Shown here: positions 5,173 to 61,925 of the stretch, in pieces
How the letters are laid out: every line of letters starts with the position of its first letter
How positions within the stretch are numbered: position 1 is the first letter of the stretch
Notes under the pieces: generated by a model
The model's input: only the letters and a program-made list of their open reading frames with translations
Told to the model about the DNA's origin: nothing
Databases searched by the model: none
NCBI GenBank assembly: GCA_020632095.1
Contig: JACKGF010000001.1
Location: forward strand, 802,141 to 866,140
DNA length: 64,000 nucleotides
Source of the DNA: Candidatus Nomurabacteria bacterium
Lineage (GTDB): Bacteria > Patescibacteriota > Minisyncoccia > Phycocordibacterales > UBA918
Reading direction: 5' to 3'
Translations under genes and position numbers: made by a program

Positions 5173-5439
5173 CTATCTTTTTAGACCTAGTTTCTTGATT
5201 AGTCCCTCGTAAGCAGTCTGACTTTTGCGCTGAAGATATTTCAGGTGCTTGCGCCGGTCGGCTACCATCTGTAGTAATCCACGTCGTGAGTGAAAGTCCT
5301 TCTTATGCTTGCGCAAGTGGTTGGACAATTCTTCAATTTTTCTGGTTAGTAGAGCCACTTGTGCTTCTGGTGATCCAGTGTCGTTGTCGTGTCGACGGGT
5401 ATTTTTTAAGGTGTTCTCAATTATTCGCTTTGATAGCAT
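5173..5439 (-). CDS. rpsO: 30S ribosomal protein S15
   Basis: 88 aa, ...[32 protein letters not shown]... Confidence 0.9.
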
Positions 5440-15371: not shown

Positions 15372-16178
15372 ATGTGTATGAAAATTTATTCTTGGAATGT
15401 GAATGGGATAAGAGCAGTTGAAAAAAAAGGTTTATTACAGCCATTCTTGGCCAAACATCAGCCAGATGTGCTTTGTCTTCAGGAAACTAAGGCTCAACCG
15501 GACCAGATTGACCTGAATTTAGACGGTTACGAGTTGTTTTGGCATTCAGCGGAGAAAAAAGGCTATTCTGGCACAGCCATTTTTACCAAACATGAACCAA
15601 TTGACGTGGTTAATGGCTTGCCGGAAGAGATTAAATCCAAGTATCAATTAACTGACAGTTATGGCGATACAACAATGGAGGGGCGAATTATGACTGCTGA
15701 ATTTGAGCCTTTTTATATCAGTACAGTTTATACTCCCAACGCCAAGGATGATTTGTCGCGAATTCCCATGCGCCAGCAGTGGGATCCGGCCTATTTACAA
15801 TATATGAGTGACTTGCAAAAAATTAAGCCAGTTATTTTTTGTGGTGATTTTAATGTCGCCCACACTGAACTCGATCTAGCTCGACCTAAGCAAAATATTG
15901 GTAAAAAAGGATTTACCTCTGAAGAAAGAGTTGGGATCGATAACATGCTAAAGCATGGATTTGTTGATACTTTGCGACACCTCAATCCAGACACACCCGA
16001 ACTCTACACTTGGTGGTCACACTTTGGCGGGGCGCGCGAACGAAATGTTGGTTGGCGGATTGATTATGTCATGGTGTCAGAAGCCTTAGTACCAGTTATA
16101 AAAAACGCCCGCATCCACCCAGAAGTATTAGGCTCCGACCACTGCCCTGTTTCGATTGAGCTTAGTGTTGAACTCTAG
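15372..16178 (+). CDS. xth: exodeoxyribonuclease III / AP endonuclease
   Basis: MKIYSWNVNGIRA...DVLCLQETK...GDFNVAHTELD...SDHCPV. Confidence 0.9.
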   Translation: MCMKIYSWNVNGIRAVEKKGLLQPFLAKHQPDVLCLQETKAQPDQIDLNLDGYELFWHSAEKKGYSGTAIFTKHEPIDVVNGLPEEIKSKYQLTDSYGDTTMEGRIMTAEFEPFYISTVYTPNAKDDLSRIPMRQQWDPAYLQYMSDLQKIKPVIFCGDFNVAHTELDLARPKQNIGKKGFTSEERVGIDNMLKHGFVDTLRHLNPDTPELYTWWSHFGGARERNVGWRIDYVMVSEALVPVIKNARIHPEVLGSDHCPVSIELSVEL

Positions 16179-16422
16179 ATTTTTACCAAAAAAATTTTGA
16201 GTTTAATTTTTTATTATTCAACAAACGCTAAGACAGCTTAGCTTAAAAGTGCTAGCTTCATTATTAAGTAGTGAAATAGGGCTGTAAATAAGATTAAACT
16301 GAAGTTCAGAGTAATCAAAAACTAACATAACTTACAAAAAATTAATTAGTAAAAAAATAAATTTTAGCTTTTTTATAAAAACACGAAACACAATTTAGTC
16401 AAATGAAATTGTAAAGGACAAG

Positions 16423-16441
16423 TTATCCACAGTTATACACA
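16423..16441 (+). promoter_or_regulatory. tandem DnaA-box-like motifs (TTATCCACA, TTATACACA) at the edge of a very AT-rich stretch
   Basis: A perfect DnaA-box consensus and a one-mismatch box lie adjacent to each other. An AT-rich tract of about 250 bp precedes them (16180-16420). Confidence 0.25.
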
Positions 16442-16845
16442 CCCCTGTCCTTTACACTGTCCTTTAGGATTAGTATATTAATGGTAGGCCCAGAAAGGGC
16501 GAGCAAGCTCTCCCAGAGAACTAACCAGAATCAATTTCCGATTAGTTCCCTGGAAGAGCTCCTTATAGAGTTCTTCCAAAATCCACAAATGAGTTACCTC
16601 CAAAATGATAGCAATATCATTAAACTCAAAACGTTCATAAAACATCCCACCCCCTTAGAAATCAGATCAAGCTCACATCCACAAGAGCGAGATCACAAAA
16701 TGATTTCTACAACAACGTAGAGCTCGGACACGGTTAGCTTCATCAGTAAGCGCCACCCATGACTATTTAGTCACTATAGCTCGCCAAAGGCCCGGAAAGT
16801 CGGCTGACAAGTATCACACTTGCCCATCGACTCCCCGGGCCTTTT

Positions 16846-16933
16846 TTTTGCATGAACAAAGGCCTGAAAGGCCTATTGTGAATGTATGTTGCTAGAAAAT
16901 AATGACTGAAAGGAGTATATTTTATGTATGCTG
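16846..16933 (+). repeat. direct repeat copy 1 (about 88 bp) with a 5' hairpin and an embedded SD-ATG
   Basis: tgaacaaaggcctgaaaggcctattgtgaatgtatgttgctagaaaataatgactgaaaggagtatattttatgtatgctgtgcacaag. Confidence 0.7.
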
Positions 16934-16966
16934 TGCACAAGATTTGTTTTGCCTTGAGCAAATTCT

Positions 16967-17055
16967 GACTCAAGGAACAAATGTCCGAAGGGCATATTGT
17001 GAAAATATGTTGCTAGAAAATAATGACTGAAAGGAGTATATTTTATGTATGCTTG
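16967..17055 (+). repeat. direct repeat copy 2 (121-bp period)
   Basis: It is identical over about 60 nt. Its hairpin has a different sequence (atgtcc-gaa-gggcat, against aggcct-gaa-aggcct in copy 1) but keeps the base-pairing. A 1-nt indel follows the ATG. Confidence 0.7.
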
Positions 17056-17306
17056 TGCACAAGGATCCGCCTCTTTCCTAGGGCGGATTCCTGGACGTGG
17101 AACAATGCTCCGCAAACTCTCTTCCTGGTAGGAAATAACCAAGTAAAATGTTTATATACACCTACCCCCCTAAACCGACCCTAATACAGTTTAGCCTTAC
17201 CAAGGAAGAGTCTAGGTAAAAACTACTTGGTCACCTGAATTGTCCAACCAAGGAAAGGTCTAGGCGAAATTACTAGTCGATTCAATCTCACTTTGTCACC
17301 CCCCAT

Positions 17307-17336
17307 AAGAAAACGGCTCAACTGAGCCGTTTTCTT
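17307..17336. terminator. bidirectional intrinsic terminator
   Basis: aagaaaacggctca-act-gagccgttttctt. Confidence 0.65.
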
Positions 17337-17346
17337 AACCTGTCCT

Positions 17347-18819
17347 TTATAATACCTTATGCTCTCTCGCGATGTCCTTTAGGGCTTCAGCTTCTTCTTC
17401 CGCTTGGCGACGTTTACCTGCCTCCGCCATTGTTTCTAGCTCTACTTCGGGCAATTTAAGTAATTCCAACGCCCTTTGCTCCATATACTCCTCAGTATTC
17501 TTGCTGGCATCATCCAAAGCTTCTTCCAACAGTGCGTGCAGTAGATATCCCAGCTTTTTACCAGGCTTTTCCCCAGAGATTTCCATAATTTTATCCCCAG
17601 AGATTTTAAGCATCTTAACTGAGATTGGGTCGCGTAAAGCTTCGTCCACCATCGCTTTGTATTTACGGAAGCGAAAAGGCTGTTCTTTTGGTCGACCGGT
17701 ACCGATACGGTCACAAACTCTCAGGTTTAATAAATTTTCTATCTGGTCCTCCCCTATTCTGGTAATGGTTCTCCGTACCGCTGAAAGTGTAATTTCGTCT
17801 GGGTCTGAGAAAAACATGTGCCATCGCACTAGGTTCACCACTTCTTCAATCATTTCGCGTGGCAGCTTCAGTCTCTCTAGAATAGATTTAGTCATCCGCG
17901 CGCCCACTACTTCATGACCAAAGAATGTGTACTTCTTATTCTTTCCACCAACTCTTCTGGTGGCTGGCTTTGCGATATCGTGAAATAAGGCGGCCAAACG
18001 TAGATTGAGAGAAAATTCTTTGTCGGCGGCTGCCTGCATGGTGCGTAGTAGGTGTTCATAGACATCAAATGCGTGGATTCCACCTTGTTCGCAACCAATT
18101 GAATCAGCAAATTCAGGGATAAATTGCTTCAGTAGACCTAACTTTTCTAGGAAGATAACCCCTTGCATTGGGGTAGAAGAATTAACGATCCTCAAAAACT
18201 CGGCCGCAATACGTTCAATAGAAATACGGCTCAATTGTTCACTGTTCTTTAAGATAGCAGCCATGGTCTTCCCTTCGATCATAAAGTCCAGTTCAGCCGC
18301 CAAGCGAACGGCCCGCATCATGCGTAAGGCATCTTCCGCAAAACGTTCGTCCGAGTCACCGACTGTTTGTAGTCGTTTTGCTCTGAGGTCGCTAATTCCC
18401 TCAAACAAATCAATTAATTCCGCTGTCGAGATACGATAGGCTAAGGCGTTGATGGTAAAATCACGACGCTTCAGGTCTTCTTCCAGTGAAACACCGAAAG
18501 TAACGTTGTCTGGGCGGCGAGCATCGCTGTATCCACTTTCGGAACGATAAGGAGTGACCTCAATTATCTTTAGTCGTTCATCTTCTGACTCAGTCTTGAT
18601 ACCAATAGTGCCAAAGTCATTGTTCGCATAATGCTCAGGAAAAAGCGCTTGAATATCACTCGGGTGTGCATTGGTGGTAATATCCCAATCCTTCGGAGTC
18701 TTACCTAAAATTAAGTCACGAGTACAACCGCCCACCAAATAGGCTTCAAAACCCTTACTTTCAAGCATATTTGCAACATGAAACACTTCGTCCGGAATAT
18801 CGGTAGTTTTGATAGACAT
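17347..18819 (-). CDS. cca: CCA-adding tRNA nucleotidyltransferase with an HD domain
   Basis: GGCTRDLILGKTPKDWDITT is the PolyA_pol head. It also has the HD motif (HDIAK) and a C-terminal extension. Confidence 0.85.
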   Translation of the reverse strand: MSIKTTDIPDEVFHVANMLESKGFEAYLVGGCTRDLILGKTPKDWDITTNAHPSDIQALFPEHYANNDFGTIGIKTESEDERLKIIEVTPYRSESGYSDARRPDNVTFGVSLEEDLKRRDFTINALAYRISTAELIDLFEGISDLRAKRLQTVGDSDERFAEDALRMMRAVRLAAELDFMIEGKTMAAILKNSEQLSRISIERIAAEFLRIVNSSTPMQGVIFLEKLGLLKQFIPEFADSIGCEQGGIHAFDVYEHLLRTMQAAADKEFSLNLRLAALFHDIAKPATRRVGGKNKKYTFFGHEVVGARMTKSILERLKLPREMIEEVVNLVRWHMFFSDPDEITLSAVRRTITRIGEDQIENLLNLRVCDRIGTGRPKEQPFRFRKYKAMVDEALRDPISVKMLKISGDKIMEISGEKPGKKLGYLLHALLEEALDDASKNTEEYMEQRALELLKLPEVELETMAEAGKRRQAEEEAEALKDIAREHKVL

Positions 18820-19473: not shown

Positions 19474-20886
19474 ATGGGAAGCATTAGATTCATAATCGAC
19501 GGTAGTAAACTCGAGGCGGACTCCGTCTATGGGTATCCGTATAGCCTGAGTATGATCCAAAGGGGTGTCGATTCTCACGATCAGGAGCTCGGTGTCATCG
19601 AGGAGAAACAGGTCCCGGACTACCTAATAAGTGTCTTCCGAGCCATGCAGGTCGCGATCCCGCCGGAGAACATATATACCGGCGCAATCAGCAATCAAGC
19701 TCCAAGCGCGATGGTCGATACTATGTTCGGTGTCGGACGTCGTAGCTCCGCGACCTTCACTTTCCTCCCGACCGAGCTCACGGCTCATGGTCACCGCGCT
19801 TGGGTCAAGCATAAGTACTGGACGGAAGGTGGGGGCGAGTGTTGGATTGGCTCCCTGATAGAGCACAATGCCTACGTCGCCGGTTTCTGGCTCGACGAGC
19901 GGGCCGCCCAGCAGTGGGTGGAGGACCTTACCAAGCACCCGCTCGGTGAGGTCCTGCTCAAGAGCACAACACCCTACGCCGTTGTGTTCCAGGATCACGT
20001 CAATCCGGCCGAGTGGAAAGGTGTGAGGATCAATTATTTCTCGTACTGCCTGCTTTCTGAGGATGACAACTACCTCCTGAACACGATCGGTGGAGGATGT
20101 CCAAAGGGCGTTTACCGTTCATTCGATGTTTCCTTCGAGCAGTGGAACGGAACGGTCTACGTTCACGCGCCCGAGCTCTGGCAGTTGGAGCGAGACAACA
20201 AACGCGACGTCTTCCCACTTAGCCCGTCCTACCTCATTCTTCGTGCCCGCAACGGTGCCCAGGAAGTGCTTCTCACAGGTACCGACCAAGACAAGAACGG
20301 CTGGACGAAATACGTCTATGAGCTTCCTAGGCGTAAGTCCTACAACCCTCTCGACGCCTCGGGCAATTGGGCCACCTTCTGGCCCAGTTACAATGCTTGG
20401 GAGGAATTCGCCTTCGCACAACACATCAAGGCGCGTCAGGTGAGTACCCTCCACAGCGACGACTGGGGCGACGAGGATGACCCCTTCTTCATTCCACTCA
20501 CACAAGAGTACGCGAAGAAGGCCTGGGCCGCGGGCGCTACGAAGCTCCCGGCCGAGAGCATCAAGCTCAAGGTCAGCCAGTTCAAGGCGGGATACGGAGA
20601 GGGAGATCGATTAATCAACGATGAGCAAAACCCTCTGAATGGTGCCGTTATCTACGACGGATTCGACTTTGTCTCGGGTTTAGTGGGCCGGATCGTGGAT
20701 TGGATCTGGCTCAAGAAGGAATCGGCCTGCGTGTTTCTGCCTATGGGTTTCGTAGGCTGGATTCAGTGTCAGAAGGGGCTGGCAATCTCCCATGCCACGG
20801 TGGTTCGTAAGCTCGGCGACAAGTCGCGCGATCCGACTGAAATAACAGTATTTTCGGATGGTAGTTGCATCTACCCCACCACCTAG
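19474..20886 (+). CDS. hypothetical protein (470 aa), compositionally foreign (about 58-60% GC)
   Basis: Long ORF with GC3-rich codons. I recognise no motif. Confidence 0.55.
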   Translation: MGSIRFIIDGSKLEADSVYGYPYSLSMIQRGVDSHDQELGVIEEKQVPDYLISVFRAMQVAIPPENIYTGAISNQAPSAMVDTMFGVGRRSSATFTFLPTELTAHGHRAWVKHKYWTEGGGECWIGSLIEHNAYVAGFWLDERAAQQWVEDLTKHPLGEVLLKSTTPYAVVFQDHVNPAEWKGVRINYFSYCLLSEDDNYLLNTIGGGCPKGVYRSFDVSFEQWNGTVYVHAPELWQLERDNKRDVFPLSPSYLILRARNGAQEVLLTGTDQDKNGWTKYVYELPRRKSYNPLDASGNWATFWPSYNAWEEFAFAQHIKARQVSTLHSDDWGDEDDPFFIPLTQEYAKKAWAAGATKLPAESIKLKVSQFKAGYGEGDRLINDEQNPLNGAVIYDGFDFVSGLVGRIVDWIWLKKESACVFLPMGFVGWIQCQKGLAISHATVVRKLGDKSRDPTEITVFSDGSCIYPTT

Positions 20887-23252: not shown

Positions 23253-23912
23253 ATGGTACGGAATCAAGTGAATTATGAACAAGCTATCAATCTTCGGAAA
23301 CGTGGTTTTACTTTAGCTGAGATAGCTAAAGTGTGCGATATATCTAAGTCCACCGCTTCATTATGGTTGAAAAATAAGGCTTTTTCGGAGCTGGTAACTA
23401 AACAAAATATAAAACGCGCTGGCCAAGAAAACGCCAAAAGATTGAGTCTAATCAGCAAAGCGCGCGGTGGTGAACGCAAGCAAAGATACTTAGACGCACA
23501 AACATCAGCTAAGACAGAGTTTGCCCACTACAAGGCCAATCCTGCCTTTGTAGCGGGTGTAATGGCCTATGTGATGTCGGGAGACATGAGTGATGAGCAT
23601 ACTATCAGACTCAGTCATACTTCCCTGTCAGCCCACCGTATGTTTATCAGCTTTGCTACTAAGTTCCTGGGAGTAGAAAAAAACCGGATTCATTTATGGC
23701 TACACCTCTATGAAGGTGCATCAGAAGAAAGAATGATGAAAAAATGGTCTAAAATAACCACTATTCCCTTCTCTCAGTTCTATAAAAATCAATTTGTTAA
23801 TAAAACCAGCCGCAAACCATTGCACTCTGGCGTCGGAAATACTATAATCGGCAGCACCTATCATAAACAAAAGCTAAAAGCCTGGGTGCATTTAGCGGAA
23901 AAAGAATGGTAG
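23253..23912 (+). CDS. HTH-domain protein, unknown function
   Basis: It has an N-terminal helix-turn-helix (RGFTLAEIAKVCDISKSTASLWLK). Confidence 0.45.
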   Translation: MVRNQVNYEQAINLRKRGFTLAEIAKVCDISKSTASLWLKNKAFSELVTKQNIKRAGQENAKRLSLISKARGGERKQRYLDAQTSAKTEFAHYKANPAFVAGVMAYVMSGDMSDEHTIRLSHTSLSAHRMFISFATKFLGVEKNRIHLWLHLYEGASEERMMKKWSKITTIPFSQFYKNQFVNKTSRKPLHSGVGNTIIGSTYHKQKLKAWVHLAEKEW

Positions 23913-23996: not shown

Positions 23997-24022
23997 CAAA
24001 TATAAAGACCCGCAATGGTCTT

Positions 24023-24186
24023 TAGGCGTCTGTGGCCAGGGAGCAAGCAAACTGCTTTGCTTGCGGGTAATCGAAACCGCCGGAGTGATGTATTTTGCTC
24101 TTTTCCTAGAGCAAAATACGAGCGAGGTGTGACCCGTGGCACTTATGAGCAAAGCGAATTTGTGACCGTCAGGTTTCGATAATTTT
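24023..24186 (+). other. tRNA-linked structured element A (homologous to element B)
   Basis: It shares blocks with 25961-26129: gcaaactgctttgc inside a 9-bp covarying stem, aatcgaa.cgccggag.gatgt, cgagcgaggtgtgacccgtggcactt, gagcaaagcgaa and gtgaccgtcagg. It ends with ggtttcgat, which echoes the tRNA-Gly T-arm. Confidence 0.4.
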
Positions 24187-24412
24187 TAGGGTGATGTCCG
24201 TACATAATAGACCTAGTAAAGATGAGCGTGTGCGAATGTAAGTAGACAATTAGTTTCTATAGAGTGCATAACTGGGGATAAGGAGTGGATAGGTGGATAA
24301 AGGACAAAAAGGGTTATAAAAGGCACTTGTCCTTTATATATTCTTGGTATAATAAACAAAATCATGTTTCATTTCACATGAAACGGGAAATATTTGTAAA
24401 TACTAAGTTTCA

Positions 24413-24827
24413 TATGAAACAAACTGATAAACAAGGCAGAAAAAACGAAATTGGAGCCTACGGGGAAGAAATTGCTATAAATTACCTTAAAAAGCTAGGT
24501 TTTACTATTTTAGATACAAATTATCTTAAAAAATGGGGTGAAATTGACATTGTGGCACGTGAAACAGACAAAATTCACTTTATTGAGGTAAAAACAGTTT
24601 CATATGAAACAAAGATTGACTTAAAAAATGCTATTTCACGTGGCACCTGGCGCCCAGAAGAAAACGTACACGTTTCTAAGATACAAAGACTGAACCGAGC
24701 GATTGAAAGTTGGATTATGGAAAATAACTATAATGATGAGTGGGAAATCGACGTTATAGCGGTGCGAATGGTTCCACGTGAAAAATACGCTACCGTTAAA
24801 TACATAGAAAGTGTCGTTTTTGGTTGA
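24413..24827 (+). CDS. YraN-family (UPF0102) PD-(D/E)xK endonuclease-like protein
   Basis: GAYGEEIAINYLKKLGFTILDTNY...GEIDIVARETDKIHFIEVKTV matches YraN. The likely start is the ATG at 24413 inside a palindrome. The listed ORF (24285) begins earlier. Confidence 0.55.
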
Positions 24828-24845
24828 TTGTGATAAGATTTTTGT

Positions 24846-25076
24846 ATGAGTGATTTAAAACTTGGTAAGTACAAGCATTACAAAGGTAATTTCTATGAAG
24901 TTATTGGTTGTGCCAGACATAGTGAGACCTTAGAAGAGTTAGTGGTTTATAAAGCGCTGTACATATCAAATGATTTCGGGAAAGACGCATTGTGGGTCAG
25001 ACCAAAAGCTATGTTTATGGAAAGCATTGAATTGAAGGGCGTAATGGTTCCTAGATTTGAGTACATCCGTCAATAA
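24846..25076 (+). CDS. DUF1653-domain protein
   Basis: KYKHYKGNFYEVIG...VVYKALY is typical of DUF1653. Confidence 0.55.
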   Translation: MSDLKLGKYKHYKGNFYEVIGCARHSETLEELVVYKALYISNDFGKDALWVRPKAMFMESIELKGVMVPRFEYIRQ

Positions 25077-25091
25077 TTTCACATGAAACAT

Positions 25092-25121
25092 GCTAAAACG
25101 TTTCACGTGAAACGTTTTAGC
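25092..25121. promoter_or_regulatory. 30-bp perfect palindrome gctaaaacgtttcacgtgaaacgttttagc (operator and/or terminator)
   Basis: Its core TTTCACGTGAAA belongs to a palindrome family that recurs at about 24366-24384, 24407-24420, 24554-24565, 24597-24610, 24635-24647, 24774-24786 and 25077-25089. Confidence 0.4.
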
Positions 25122-61671: not shown

Positions 61672-61925
61672 CGTCGGACGTGCGTATATCCTAGCATATC
61701 TAAAATATTTGTCAAGCATTTTTTGAGGGCTTGAAATAAGGGGTTTTGGGGGGAGGGTTGAGGCTGGGGCGTGCAGCGCTCCAGCCCTGCGGGGTTTTGA
61801 CAGTGTTTTTGGAGGTAAAAGTTGGTGGGGTGATTGGCTTGGTATAACAGATAGGGGGAGGAGCTTTGCTCCTCCCCCTATTACTGTCTACAAAAAACGT
61901 GCAGAAAAAATTAACACCCGCTACT

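Follow-up and report, generated by a model that had tools for sequence, protein, structure and literature searches.

Comparative analysis of 64,000 nt from a Candidatus Nomurabacteria bacterium (assembly GCA_020632095.1, contig JACKGF010000001.1, positions 802,141 to 866,140; this whole stretch is referred to as the window) pointed to a conserved, apparently undescribed non-coding RNA gene at 16486-16849, with an unusual promoter in which predicted DnaA boxes and an operator are combined. The gene lies between the convergent genes xth (exodeoxyribonuclease III, 15372-16178, + strand) and cca (CCA-adding enzyme, 17347-18819, - strand). The 1168 bp between them had been described in the initial annotation as a long non-coding gap, and no conserved open reading frame (ORF) was found there. 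The favored explanation, with a probability of about 0.6, is that the xth-cca spacer exists because it carries this RNA gene; the RNA would most likely be a base-pairing regulator controlled by DnaA and a repressor. As judged from sequence comparison, the RNA family is kept in a large clade of the Patescibacteria (Paceibacteria; Kaiserbacteria or Nomurabacteria in the records). The Patescibacteria (candidate phyla radiation) are ultra-small bacteria with genomes of ~1 Mb and few transcription factors, and to our knowledge almost no regulatory RNAs have been described in them; literature searches likewise returned no description of such a Patescibacteria RNA or origin. The maintenance of a 280-480-nt RNA in one syntenic slot throughout the clade probably reflects its importance.

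Conservation and structure of the RNA

The comparison set consisted of 80 related genome loci anchored on cca. In most of them the region corresponding to 16377-16855 was kept downstream of cca, with the most conserved block at 16377-16510 (present in 60 of the 80), while the AT-rich tract after xth, the direct repeats, and 17101-17346 were not conserved across the set. The predicted RNA is 364 nt long (16486-16849, + strand), has a fold z-score of -8.5, and was recovered from 60 of the 80 loci and, by its invariant 19-nt 5' end AGGCCCAGARAGGGCGAGC, from at least 120 metagenome contigs; the 19-mer was not found in viral contigs. This 5' end begins exactly 7 nt past the -10 hexamer, placing the predicted transcription start at A16486, and the predicted stop is a long hairpin followed by U8 (16786-16849). 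Among the contigs with the 19-mer, xth lay upstream on the same strand in at least 98 and cca was convergent downstream in at least 85, and no other gene arrangement around the RNA was seen among the metagenome matches listed. In the window, ASCH and CSD genes accompany xth and cca. With a covariance model of the 5' domain, exactly one copy was detected in the 64 kb (116 bits, E 2.7e-24), and members absent from the seed were also recovered. In distant relatives the promoter architecture and a CCUCC hairpin were kept and the 5' end had diverged, and in 48 of 61 relatives a T-run preceded by a long hairpin with (A/G)GGCC at its end was present 280-477 nt downstream of the start.

Helices of the RNA were kept by compensatory changes without a conserved reading frame, as is characteristic of structured non-coding RNAs. 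The 5' domain comprises the P1 hairpin GCCC-AGAAA-GGGC (16488-16500, within AGGCCCAGARAGGGCGAGC) and the long P2 hairpin of variable length (16501-16564). P1 was unchanged in 58 of 58 sequences, so covariation neither backs nor contradicts it by itself. Taken together in the alignment of these 58 5' domains, P1 and P2 had 93.3% of cells paired compared to 76.4% in column shuffles, with 19 of 25 pairs altered on both sides and 191 compensatory cells (44 in the shuffles); pairing dropped to 27-58% in controls with the partners slid by one to three columns. The P3 hairpin (16591-16627) carries the loop UUACCUCCAAAA with CCUCC at 16597-16601 and, in the window lineage, an extra small hairpin at 16606-16619. 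Its loop always displayed the anti-Shine-Dalgarno (anti-SD)-like UACCUCCAA, and CCUCC was present in 48 of 48 trimmed RNAs, on stems that differ in sequence and covary (GAGU/ACUC, GAGAU/AUCUC, GAGUUG/CAACUC, and GUUACAA/UUGUAAC).

The middle part of the RNA, downstream of P3, is rich in C and poor in G. There, a single-stranded tract kept across subtypes, ACGUUCAUAAAACAUCCCACCCCC (16631-16654), ends in a C-rich motif (16646-16654). The 3' domain (16717-16785), modeled with RNAalifold from 13 close relatives, includes a closing helix GAGC/GCUC, a hairpin at 16732-16754, CCACCC at 16753-16758, and a hairpin at 16760-16773; the hairpin pairs showed GC/UA and GC/CG/AU exchanges. An alternative helix of GAGC with GUUC, suggested by RNAalifold on the 13 sequences, was rejected, the changes at position 17 being compensated in CCCCUU and not in GUUC. 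The RNA ends in an intrinsic terminator, in which the inverted repeat at 16786-16841 is directly followed by U8 (16842-16849) and the stem displays 18 covarying pairs.

The ENA record contains a gene-caller prediction of 79 amino acids here (16481-16720), and a protein-coding ORF was considered. CCUUAAAGAG was situated 34 to 112 nt from the start site with all three mod-3 classes represented (33, 43, and 46), and more than 80% of the family members had stops in every frame within 150 nt, from which the 79-aa ORF was judged spurious. Inclusion of the RNA family in RNA databases could spare gene callers this false ORF.

Known RNA families gave no match. In the Rfam 15 scan of the window only tRNAs reached threshold; a permissive cmscan of 16100-17420 (E up to 10) returned only chance miRNA and snoRNA matches of at most 24 bits, and the same limit applied to the RNA in seven relatives returned nothing. 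ARAGORN identified no tmRNA in the window, and the 3' end of the RNA is a local hairpin with a U-run. A highly diverged housekeeping RNA that escapes the models (RNase P RNA, tmRNA, SRP RNA, or 6S RNA) would be consistent with a single-copy RNA of ~280-480 nt that has a strong promoter and is retained in minimal genomes, and was also hinted at by GGAAAGUC in the terminator arm together with UCGAnUCC. This identity is nevertheless very improbable given that none of the four models matched the window or the relatives even at E = 10, complementarity between the 5' and 3' ends was not conserved, and the RNA alignments contained no tRNA-like end, tag reading frame, or P4-type long-range helix.

The + strand was assigned from the whole family, in which G-U pairs outnumbered A-C mismatches by 103 to 37 in the 5' domain and by 69 to 25 in the terminator. 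The window sequence on its own folds more stably on the minus strand (-154.6 vs. -113.5 kcal/mol, with equal z-scores of -8.5), and several helices have A-C mismatches, which would read as G-U pairs on that strand, such that a functional minus-strand transcript, e.g., a cca 3' untranslated region or an antisense RNA, was also weighed. It has hardly any probability in view of the ~2.8 to 1 excess of G-U over A-C on the + strand across the family and of a conserved promoter and T-run that suit the + strand alone. Moreover, the unit travels with xth and not with cca in one related locus (L053), where the RNA and xth share one inversion with respect to cca.

Promoter architecture and the replication-origin question

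The RNA is preceded by a predicted sigma-70-type promoter (16451-16479, + strand) with a -35 hexamer TTTACA, a 17-nt spacer, and a -10 hexamer TATATT (10 of 12 matches in the promoter scan). Both hexamers and their spacing are conserved in relatives ahead of the conserved 5' end, and the strictness of promoter conservation exceeds that of most proteins encoded in these genomes. Immediately upstream, the pair of DnaA boxes proposed in the initial annotation was present as TTATCCACA (16423-16431) and TTATACACA (16433-16441), in tandem on the + strand, 10 bp apart, and at -63 to -45. In 141 unique relatives each box conformed to TTATnCACA with only position 5 free, the frequencies being T.82 T.89 A.68 T.75 n C.79 A.62 C.86 A.85 for the first box and T.67 T.84 A.81 T.76 n C.84 A.65 C.81 A.62 for the second. 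These frequencies match the DnaA-box consensus TTATNCACA with its free fifth position, which argues that the boxes are genuine. Box-like 9-mers were not enriched over the whole window (17 found vs. 17.4 expected), and the next ones were more than 1 kb away from the pair.

A second motif brackets the boxes. Two proximal half-sites TGTCCTTTA (16446-16454 and 16458-16466, + strand) overlap the -35 hexamer and the spacer, and GTAAAGGACA was unchanged in 60 of 60 relatives. The motif, as TGTC[CT]TT[TA]A, starts exactly 40 nt upstream of the start site in 140 of the 141 unique promoters that contain it, and its fixed position identifies its TTTACA as the -35 hexamer. In most relatives an inverted copy, TGTAAAGGACA, occupies the spacer down to the -10, and the resulting TGTCCTTTA/TAAAGGACA pair over the -35 and spacer has, as far as sequence can tell, the classic geometry of a repressor operator. 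The second operator is situated ~60 bp upstream: a distal half-site TAAAGGACA (16412-16420, - strand) in the window, which in most relatives is the full 18-bp palindrome TGTCCTTTATAAAGGACA. The palindrome ends 74-79 nt upstream of the start site in 67 unique relatives and has been reduced to the single half-site in the window lineage. The near-inverted repeat previously reported around TGTCCTTT was recovered with arms at 16401-16420 and 16446-16465 that are 85% complementary.

The xth stop in relatives was often ~35-150 bp from the operator, and in 31 of the 67 relatives the distal palindrome was lengthened by 4-15 covarying base pairs, sometimes flanked by A/T runs; it probably doubles as the xth terminator. 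Across 626 kb of related loci TGTCCTTTA occurred 316 times compared to 6.4 expected, an enrichment of ~50-fold, and this new operator motif allows the cognate factor to be sought. Two extra copies were identified at 17341-17349 and 17373-17381 (+ strand), in the last codons and stop codon of cca, and the pair is kept at the cca 3' end in many relatives (near 5439 and 5481 in related loci). A 219-aa protein with an N-terminal HTH_23 domain is encoded at 23253-23912, between both sites that combine the operator with DnaA boxes, and is a neighbor in 48 related loci; it is a candidate for the TGTCCTTTA-binding factor. Upstream of the distal operator, AACACAATTTAGTCAA (16389-16405; TTGACTAAATTGTGTTTCGTG on the minus strand) is kept in the closest relatives and may represent either a parS-like half-site or the -35 of a divergent promoter.

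Clusters of DnaA boxes outside oriC are known from Bacillus subtilis, where six of them regulate neighboring genes and titrate DnaA (PMC3245932), and the Pseudomonas aeruginosa gidA promoter is reported to be DnaA-regulated (PMC13438810). The boxes upstream of the RNA resemble such clusters in being intergenic consensus boxes, a few kb from a probable origin, and just upstream of a promoter, a position that could allow DnaA to serve as a transcription factor or to be titrated. They are unlike them in that there are only two boxes, the controlled gene would be a non-coding RNA, and a second operator motif is present on either side.

The region had instead been read as a possible replication origin or the iteron-type or partition region of a degraded mobile replicon, and it might also be half of a bipartite origin. 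In common with bacterial oriC, it contains conserved and apparently genuine TTATnCACA boxes beside AT-rich DNA, the most AT-rich 250 nt of the window, and lies near the cumulative GC-skew minimum at 18-21 kb and a switch in gene orientation near 19 kb; furthermore, the operator motif of the RNA promoter also accompanies a box cluster at 24.3 kb. Against this stand the mere two boxes, fixed in position relative to the promoter, compared to typically at least three in oriC; the lack of dnaA, dnaN, or rep among the ORFs of at least 390 aa; the absence of iterons (at least three direct repeats of ~17-22 bp), every other direct-repeat family having two copies; the lack of viral-contig matches; and the RNA-type covariation seen in the conserved sequence that separates the boxes from the repeats, an RNA gene being the conserved neighbor of the boxes. 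The AT-rich spacer that follows the xth stop (16179-16376, 77.8% AT) is lineage-specific, with nhmmer matches restricted to copies of the same species and no counterpart in the 80 related loci. It had been described as more than 80% AT over roughly 250 bp; the tract exists, but its AT content is 76-78% over 200-250 nt and attains 83% only over 100 nt. The GC-skew analysis of the 64 kb that had been proposed as a check displayed mildly negative values at 13-20.5 kb and a sharp rise from ~0 to +0.24 located at 24.0 kb rather than 16.4 kb, close to a denser group of boxes and six parS-like sites (24.0-25.1 kb). An origin, partition, or iteron function for the xth-cca spacer is consequently considered most improbable.

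The stronger candidate is 7.8 kb away. Three to four DnaA-like boxes arranged in tandem at 24265-24345 (AGTGCATAA, TGGGGATAA, AGTGGATAG, and GGTGGATAA) abut TAAAGGACA-N22-TGTCCTTTA and TATAAT, upstream of a YraN/UPF0102 gene (24420-24827) and in an arrangement kept in relatives. Six parS-like sites (GTTTCAYRTGAAAC) were identified in the ~0.7 kb of 24406-25114 compared to 0.5 expected in the whole window; the best match, CGTTTCACGTGAAACG, is at 25099-25114, and relatives have a perfect TGTTTCACGTGAAACA at the same place. Within the 64 kb examined, the chances that 24.26-25.1 kb is the origin and centromere region are about even, and it would mark a candidate for both in genomes that lack such an annotation beside dnaA. 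Between tRNA-Gly and the box cluster (24000-24260), several hairpins were observed, of which GTCAGGTTTCGAT resembles the T-arm of the preceding tRNA and the AGCGAATTTGTGACCGTCAGGTTTCGAT part recurs in a related locus (L014); they have no Rfam match.

Proposed mode of action of the RNA

The promoter appears designed for control by two DNA-binding factors. A repressor bound at the operator would occlude the RNA promoter, and DnaA would modulate it, such that the output of RNA would track the status of the replication initiator; this proposed connection of DnaA to a regulatory RNA can be tested. The RNA would then act in trans, with its anti-SD loop and C-rich tracts pairing with G-rich ribosome-binding regions of mRNAs. 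The RNA has a base composition of A.33, C.28, U.22, and G.17; of 48 RNAs, 43 contained CACC[CU] and none contained the complementary GGUGGG. As the RNA has essentially no G-rich strings complementary to its C-rich motifs, these should be free.

In the Firmicutes, C-rich loops of the small RNAs RsaE/RoxS and RNAIII pair with Shine-Dalgarno (SD) regions (PMC6158497, PMC8216469). Similar to these RNAs, the predicted unit in the window is a stand-alone gene with its own promoter, an intrinsic terminator, and operator sites at the promoter, and exposes several C-rich motifs (CCUCC, CCCACC, and CCACCC) without an internal G-rich partner. This resemblance favors a trans-acting base-pairing regulator, a function that is proposed tentatively and as one possibility among several. 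In contrast to the Firmicutes examples, the window RNA belongs to another phylum, has no sequence or Rfam similarity to them, is three to four times longer than RsaE/RoxS, and has a loop consisting of the full anti-SD core followed by an A-run. The likeness lies in the motifs and their unpaired state.

Several points weigh against a DnaA- and repressor-controlled, base-pairing RNA in addition to the more stable minus-strand fold of the window sequence. The start and end of the RNA are derived from consensus motifs and conservation, and covariation is silent on both P1 and the CCUCC loop, neither of which ever varies. No conserved target was found, the sole perfect 12-nt complement of the P3 loop (61806-61817) not being conserved. 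The A-run after CCUCC would favor UUUUGGAGG over the usual AAAGGAGG targets, making general SD binding not obvious. Finally, the distal palindrome is embedded in a longer covarying hairpin in many relatives and may also, or instead, be the xth terminator.

The complement of the P3 loop, UUUUGGAGGUAA, is part of a G-rich intergenic region (61720-61880) with GGGG runs, a promoter-like TTGTCA, and a strong terminator hairpin at 61853-61880. This region was considered as a G-rich partner RNA and discarded, four relatives having no counterpart of it downstream of pyruvate kinase.

A real RNA could alternatively bind or sequester a protein or serve as a scaffold without pairing to mRNA, following the models of 6S RNA, CsrB, and CrcZ; a plausible partner would be a protein with a preference for single strands rich in C or A, e.g., a KH-domain protein. 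A length of 280-477 nt is long for a base-pairing small RNA, and the invariant 19-nt 5' end suggests recognition by a protein, which together with the missing conserved target lends this function some credit. The window RNA is also like 6S RNA, CsrB/RsmZ, and CrcZ in its size range, several conserved hairpins, repeated short single-stranded C/A-rich motifs, and one conserved copy per genome. It differs from them in having neither a repeated GGA loop, an A-rich series of the CrcZ type, a 6S-like rod with a central bubble, nor a match to their Rfam models, and the anti-SD core, ACCUCC, is precisely what is conserved most among its exposed elements. Protein sequestration is therefore ranked second to base pairing and regarded as rather unlikely.

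A wider proposal combines the base-pairing RNA with the candidate oriC/parS region 8 kb away: an origin-proximal riboregulator under control of DnaA boxes would tune translation according to initiator status, and the TGTCCTTTATAAAGGACA repressor would be common to both sites. If true, the RNA and the candidate region would form a small regulon joining replication to RNA regulation, although this combination is speculative and its probability low.

The downstream tandem repeat and flanking features

Downstream of the RNA terminator, the two direct repeats of 88 bp noted in the initial annotation were recovered as copies of 79-89 nt with 91% identity and 121 nt spacing at 16854-16941 and 16975-17063, ~8 nt from where they had been placed, and the hairpins of differing sequence that start them were confirmed (AGGCCT-GAA-AGGCCT at 16860-16874 and ATGTCC-GAA-GGGCAT at 16981-16995). 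The repeats correspond to a conserved two-hairpin unit, termed element 2, that directly follows the RNA terminator in ~37 of 182 loci and has the layout (A/G)AUGA(A/G)CAAA, hairpin 1, UAUUG(C/U)GAAUUUAU, a long hairpin 2 with a CCUAG loop, and CUGGAC. In the family, hairpin 2 was 89% paired with 10 of 14 pairs altered on both sides, hairpin 1 also covaried, and G-U pairs outnumbered A-C mismatches by 16 to 4 on the + strand. A search of relatives with a covariance model of the repeat, as had been suggested, was productive: the model, R2, detected element 2 in ~20 of the 80 genome loci, always on the strand of the RNA. The earlier argument for an RNA-level function of the repeats is thus supported by covariation, although it had overlooked the main 364-nt RNA gene between the boxes and the repeats.

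Copy 1 of element 2 (16850-16974, + strand; R2 41 bits, E 1.4e-4) comprises hairpin 1, the linker UAUUGUGAA, and an insertion of ~44 nt (16889-16932), and has lost hairpin 2. Copy 2 (16975-17100, + strand; R2 34 bits, E 2.9e-3) comprises hairpin 1, the insertion (17010-17053), and hairpin 2 with its CCUAG loop (17063-17096). The ~44-nt insertion is common to a related locus (L008), and tandem copies of element 2 were also observed in L008 and L146. By sequence comparison, duplication of the conserved two-hairpin element, specific to this lineage, accounts for the 121-nt tandem repeat, with both copies interrupted by the insertion. Identical DNA was identified in GCA_020428725.1 and in an 84-kb ENA contig, and the contigs of two further assemblies of the same species end inside the tandem repeat, which fits an assembly break at a genuine duplication of 121 nt. 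Element 2 could extend the RNA at its 3' end by transcriptional read-through, or it could be a small RNA in its own right.

The repeats had also been proposed to encode small proteins or leader peptides, and in both copies strings resembling a promoter (TTGTGA-16-AATAAT), an SD sequence, and an ATG were indeed present, giving ORFs of 14 aa (16924-16968, + strand) and 28 aa (17045-17131, + strand). The two ORFs are mutually frame-shifted, the peptides diverging after three residues through a 1-nt indel. The SD-ATG lies inside the insertion, which most relatives lack, no ATG was found in the homologous insertion of L008, and the hairpins are conserved and not the reading frame. The ORFs were accordingly judged spurious, and their interpretation as a pair of genes for small proteins or leader peptides, with a promoter for each, is very doubtful. 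TIGR guide-RNA arrays (PMC12045711) were likewise rejected as a parallel for the tandem units, with no Tas gene and only two units.

Toward cca, a weak direct repeat (ACCAAGGAAGAGTCTAGG and ACCAAGGAAAGGTCTAGG; 17199-17269, + strand) was identified. Two copies were present as previously described, at 23 nt and 83% identity compared to the ~30 bp reported. No homologue was found in the 80 related loci, and the repeat resembles the GGACGAACCAAG..TAG tails after hairpin 2 in L146, so that it may be a remnant of further element-2 tails. The bidirectional intrinsic terminator of cca (17306-17337) was confirmed as a perfect 15-bp inverted repeat with A and T runs at its flanks.

Beyond cca, an ORF of 470 aa (19474-20886) without a Pfam or NCBIfam match forms an island of 54-58% G+C in a window of ~42%. 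It had no homologue among the 80 related loci and was probably acquired horizontally. Two of these loci contain another insert in the gap between cca and the RNA (L009, 5467-5866; L015, 5470-5806), a structured sequence of ~300 nt with a near-consensus TTGACA-17-TATAAT promoter and a terminator. It has no Rfam match and may be another RNA; a third locus (L011) has a small acetyltransferase-like ORF in its place.

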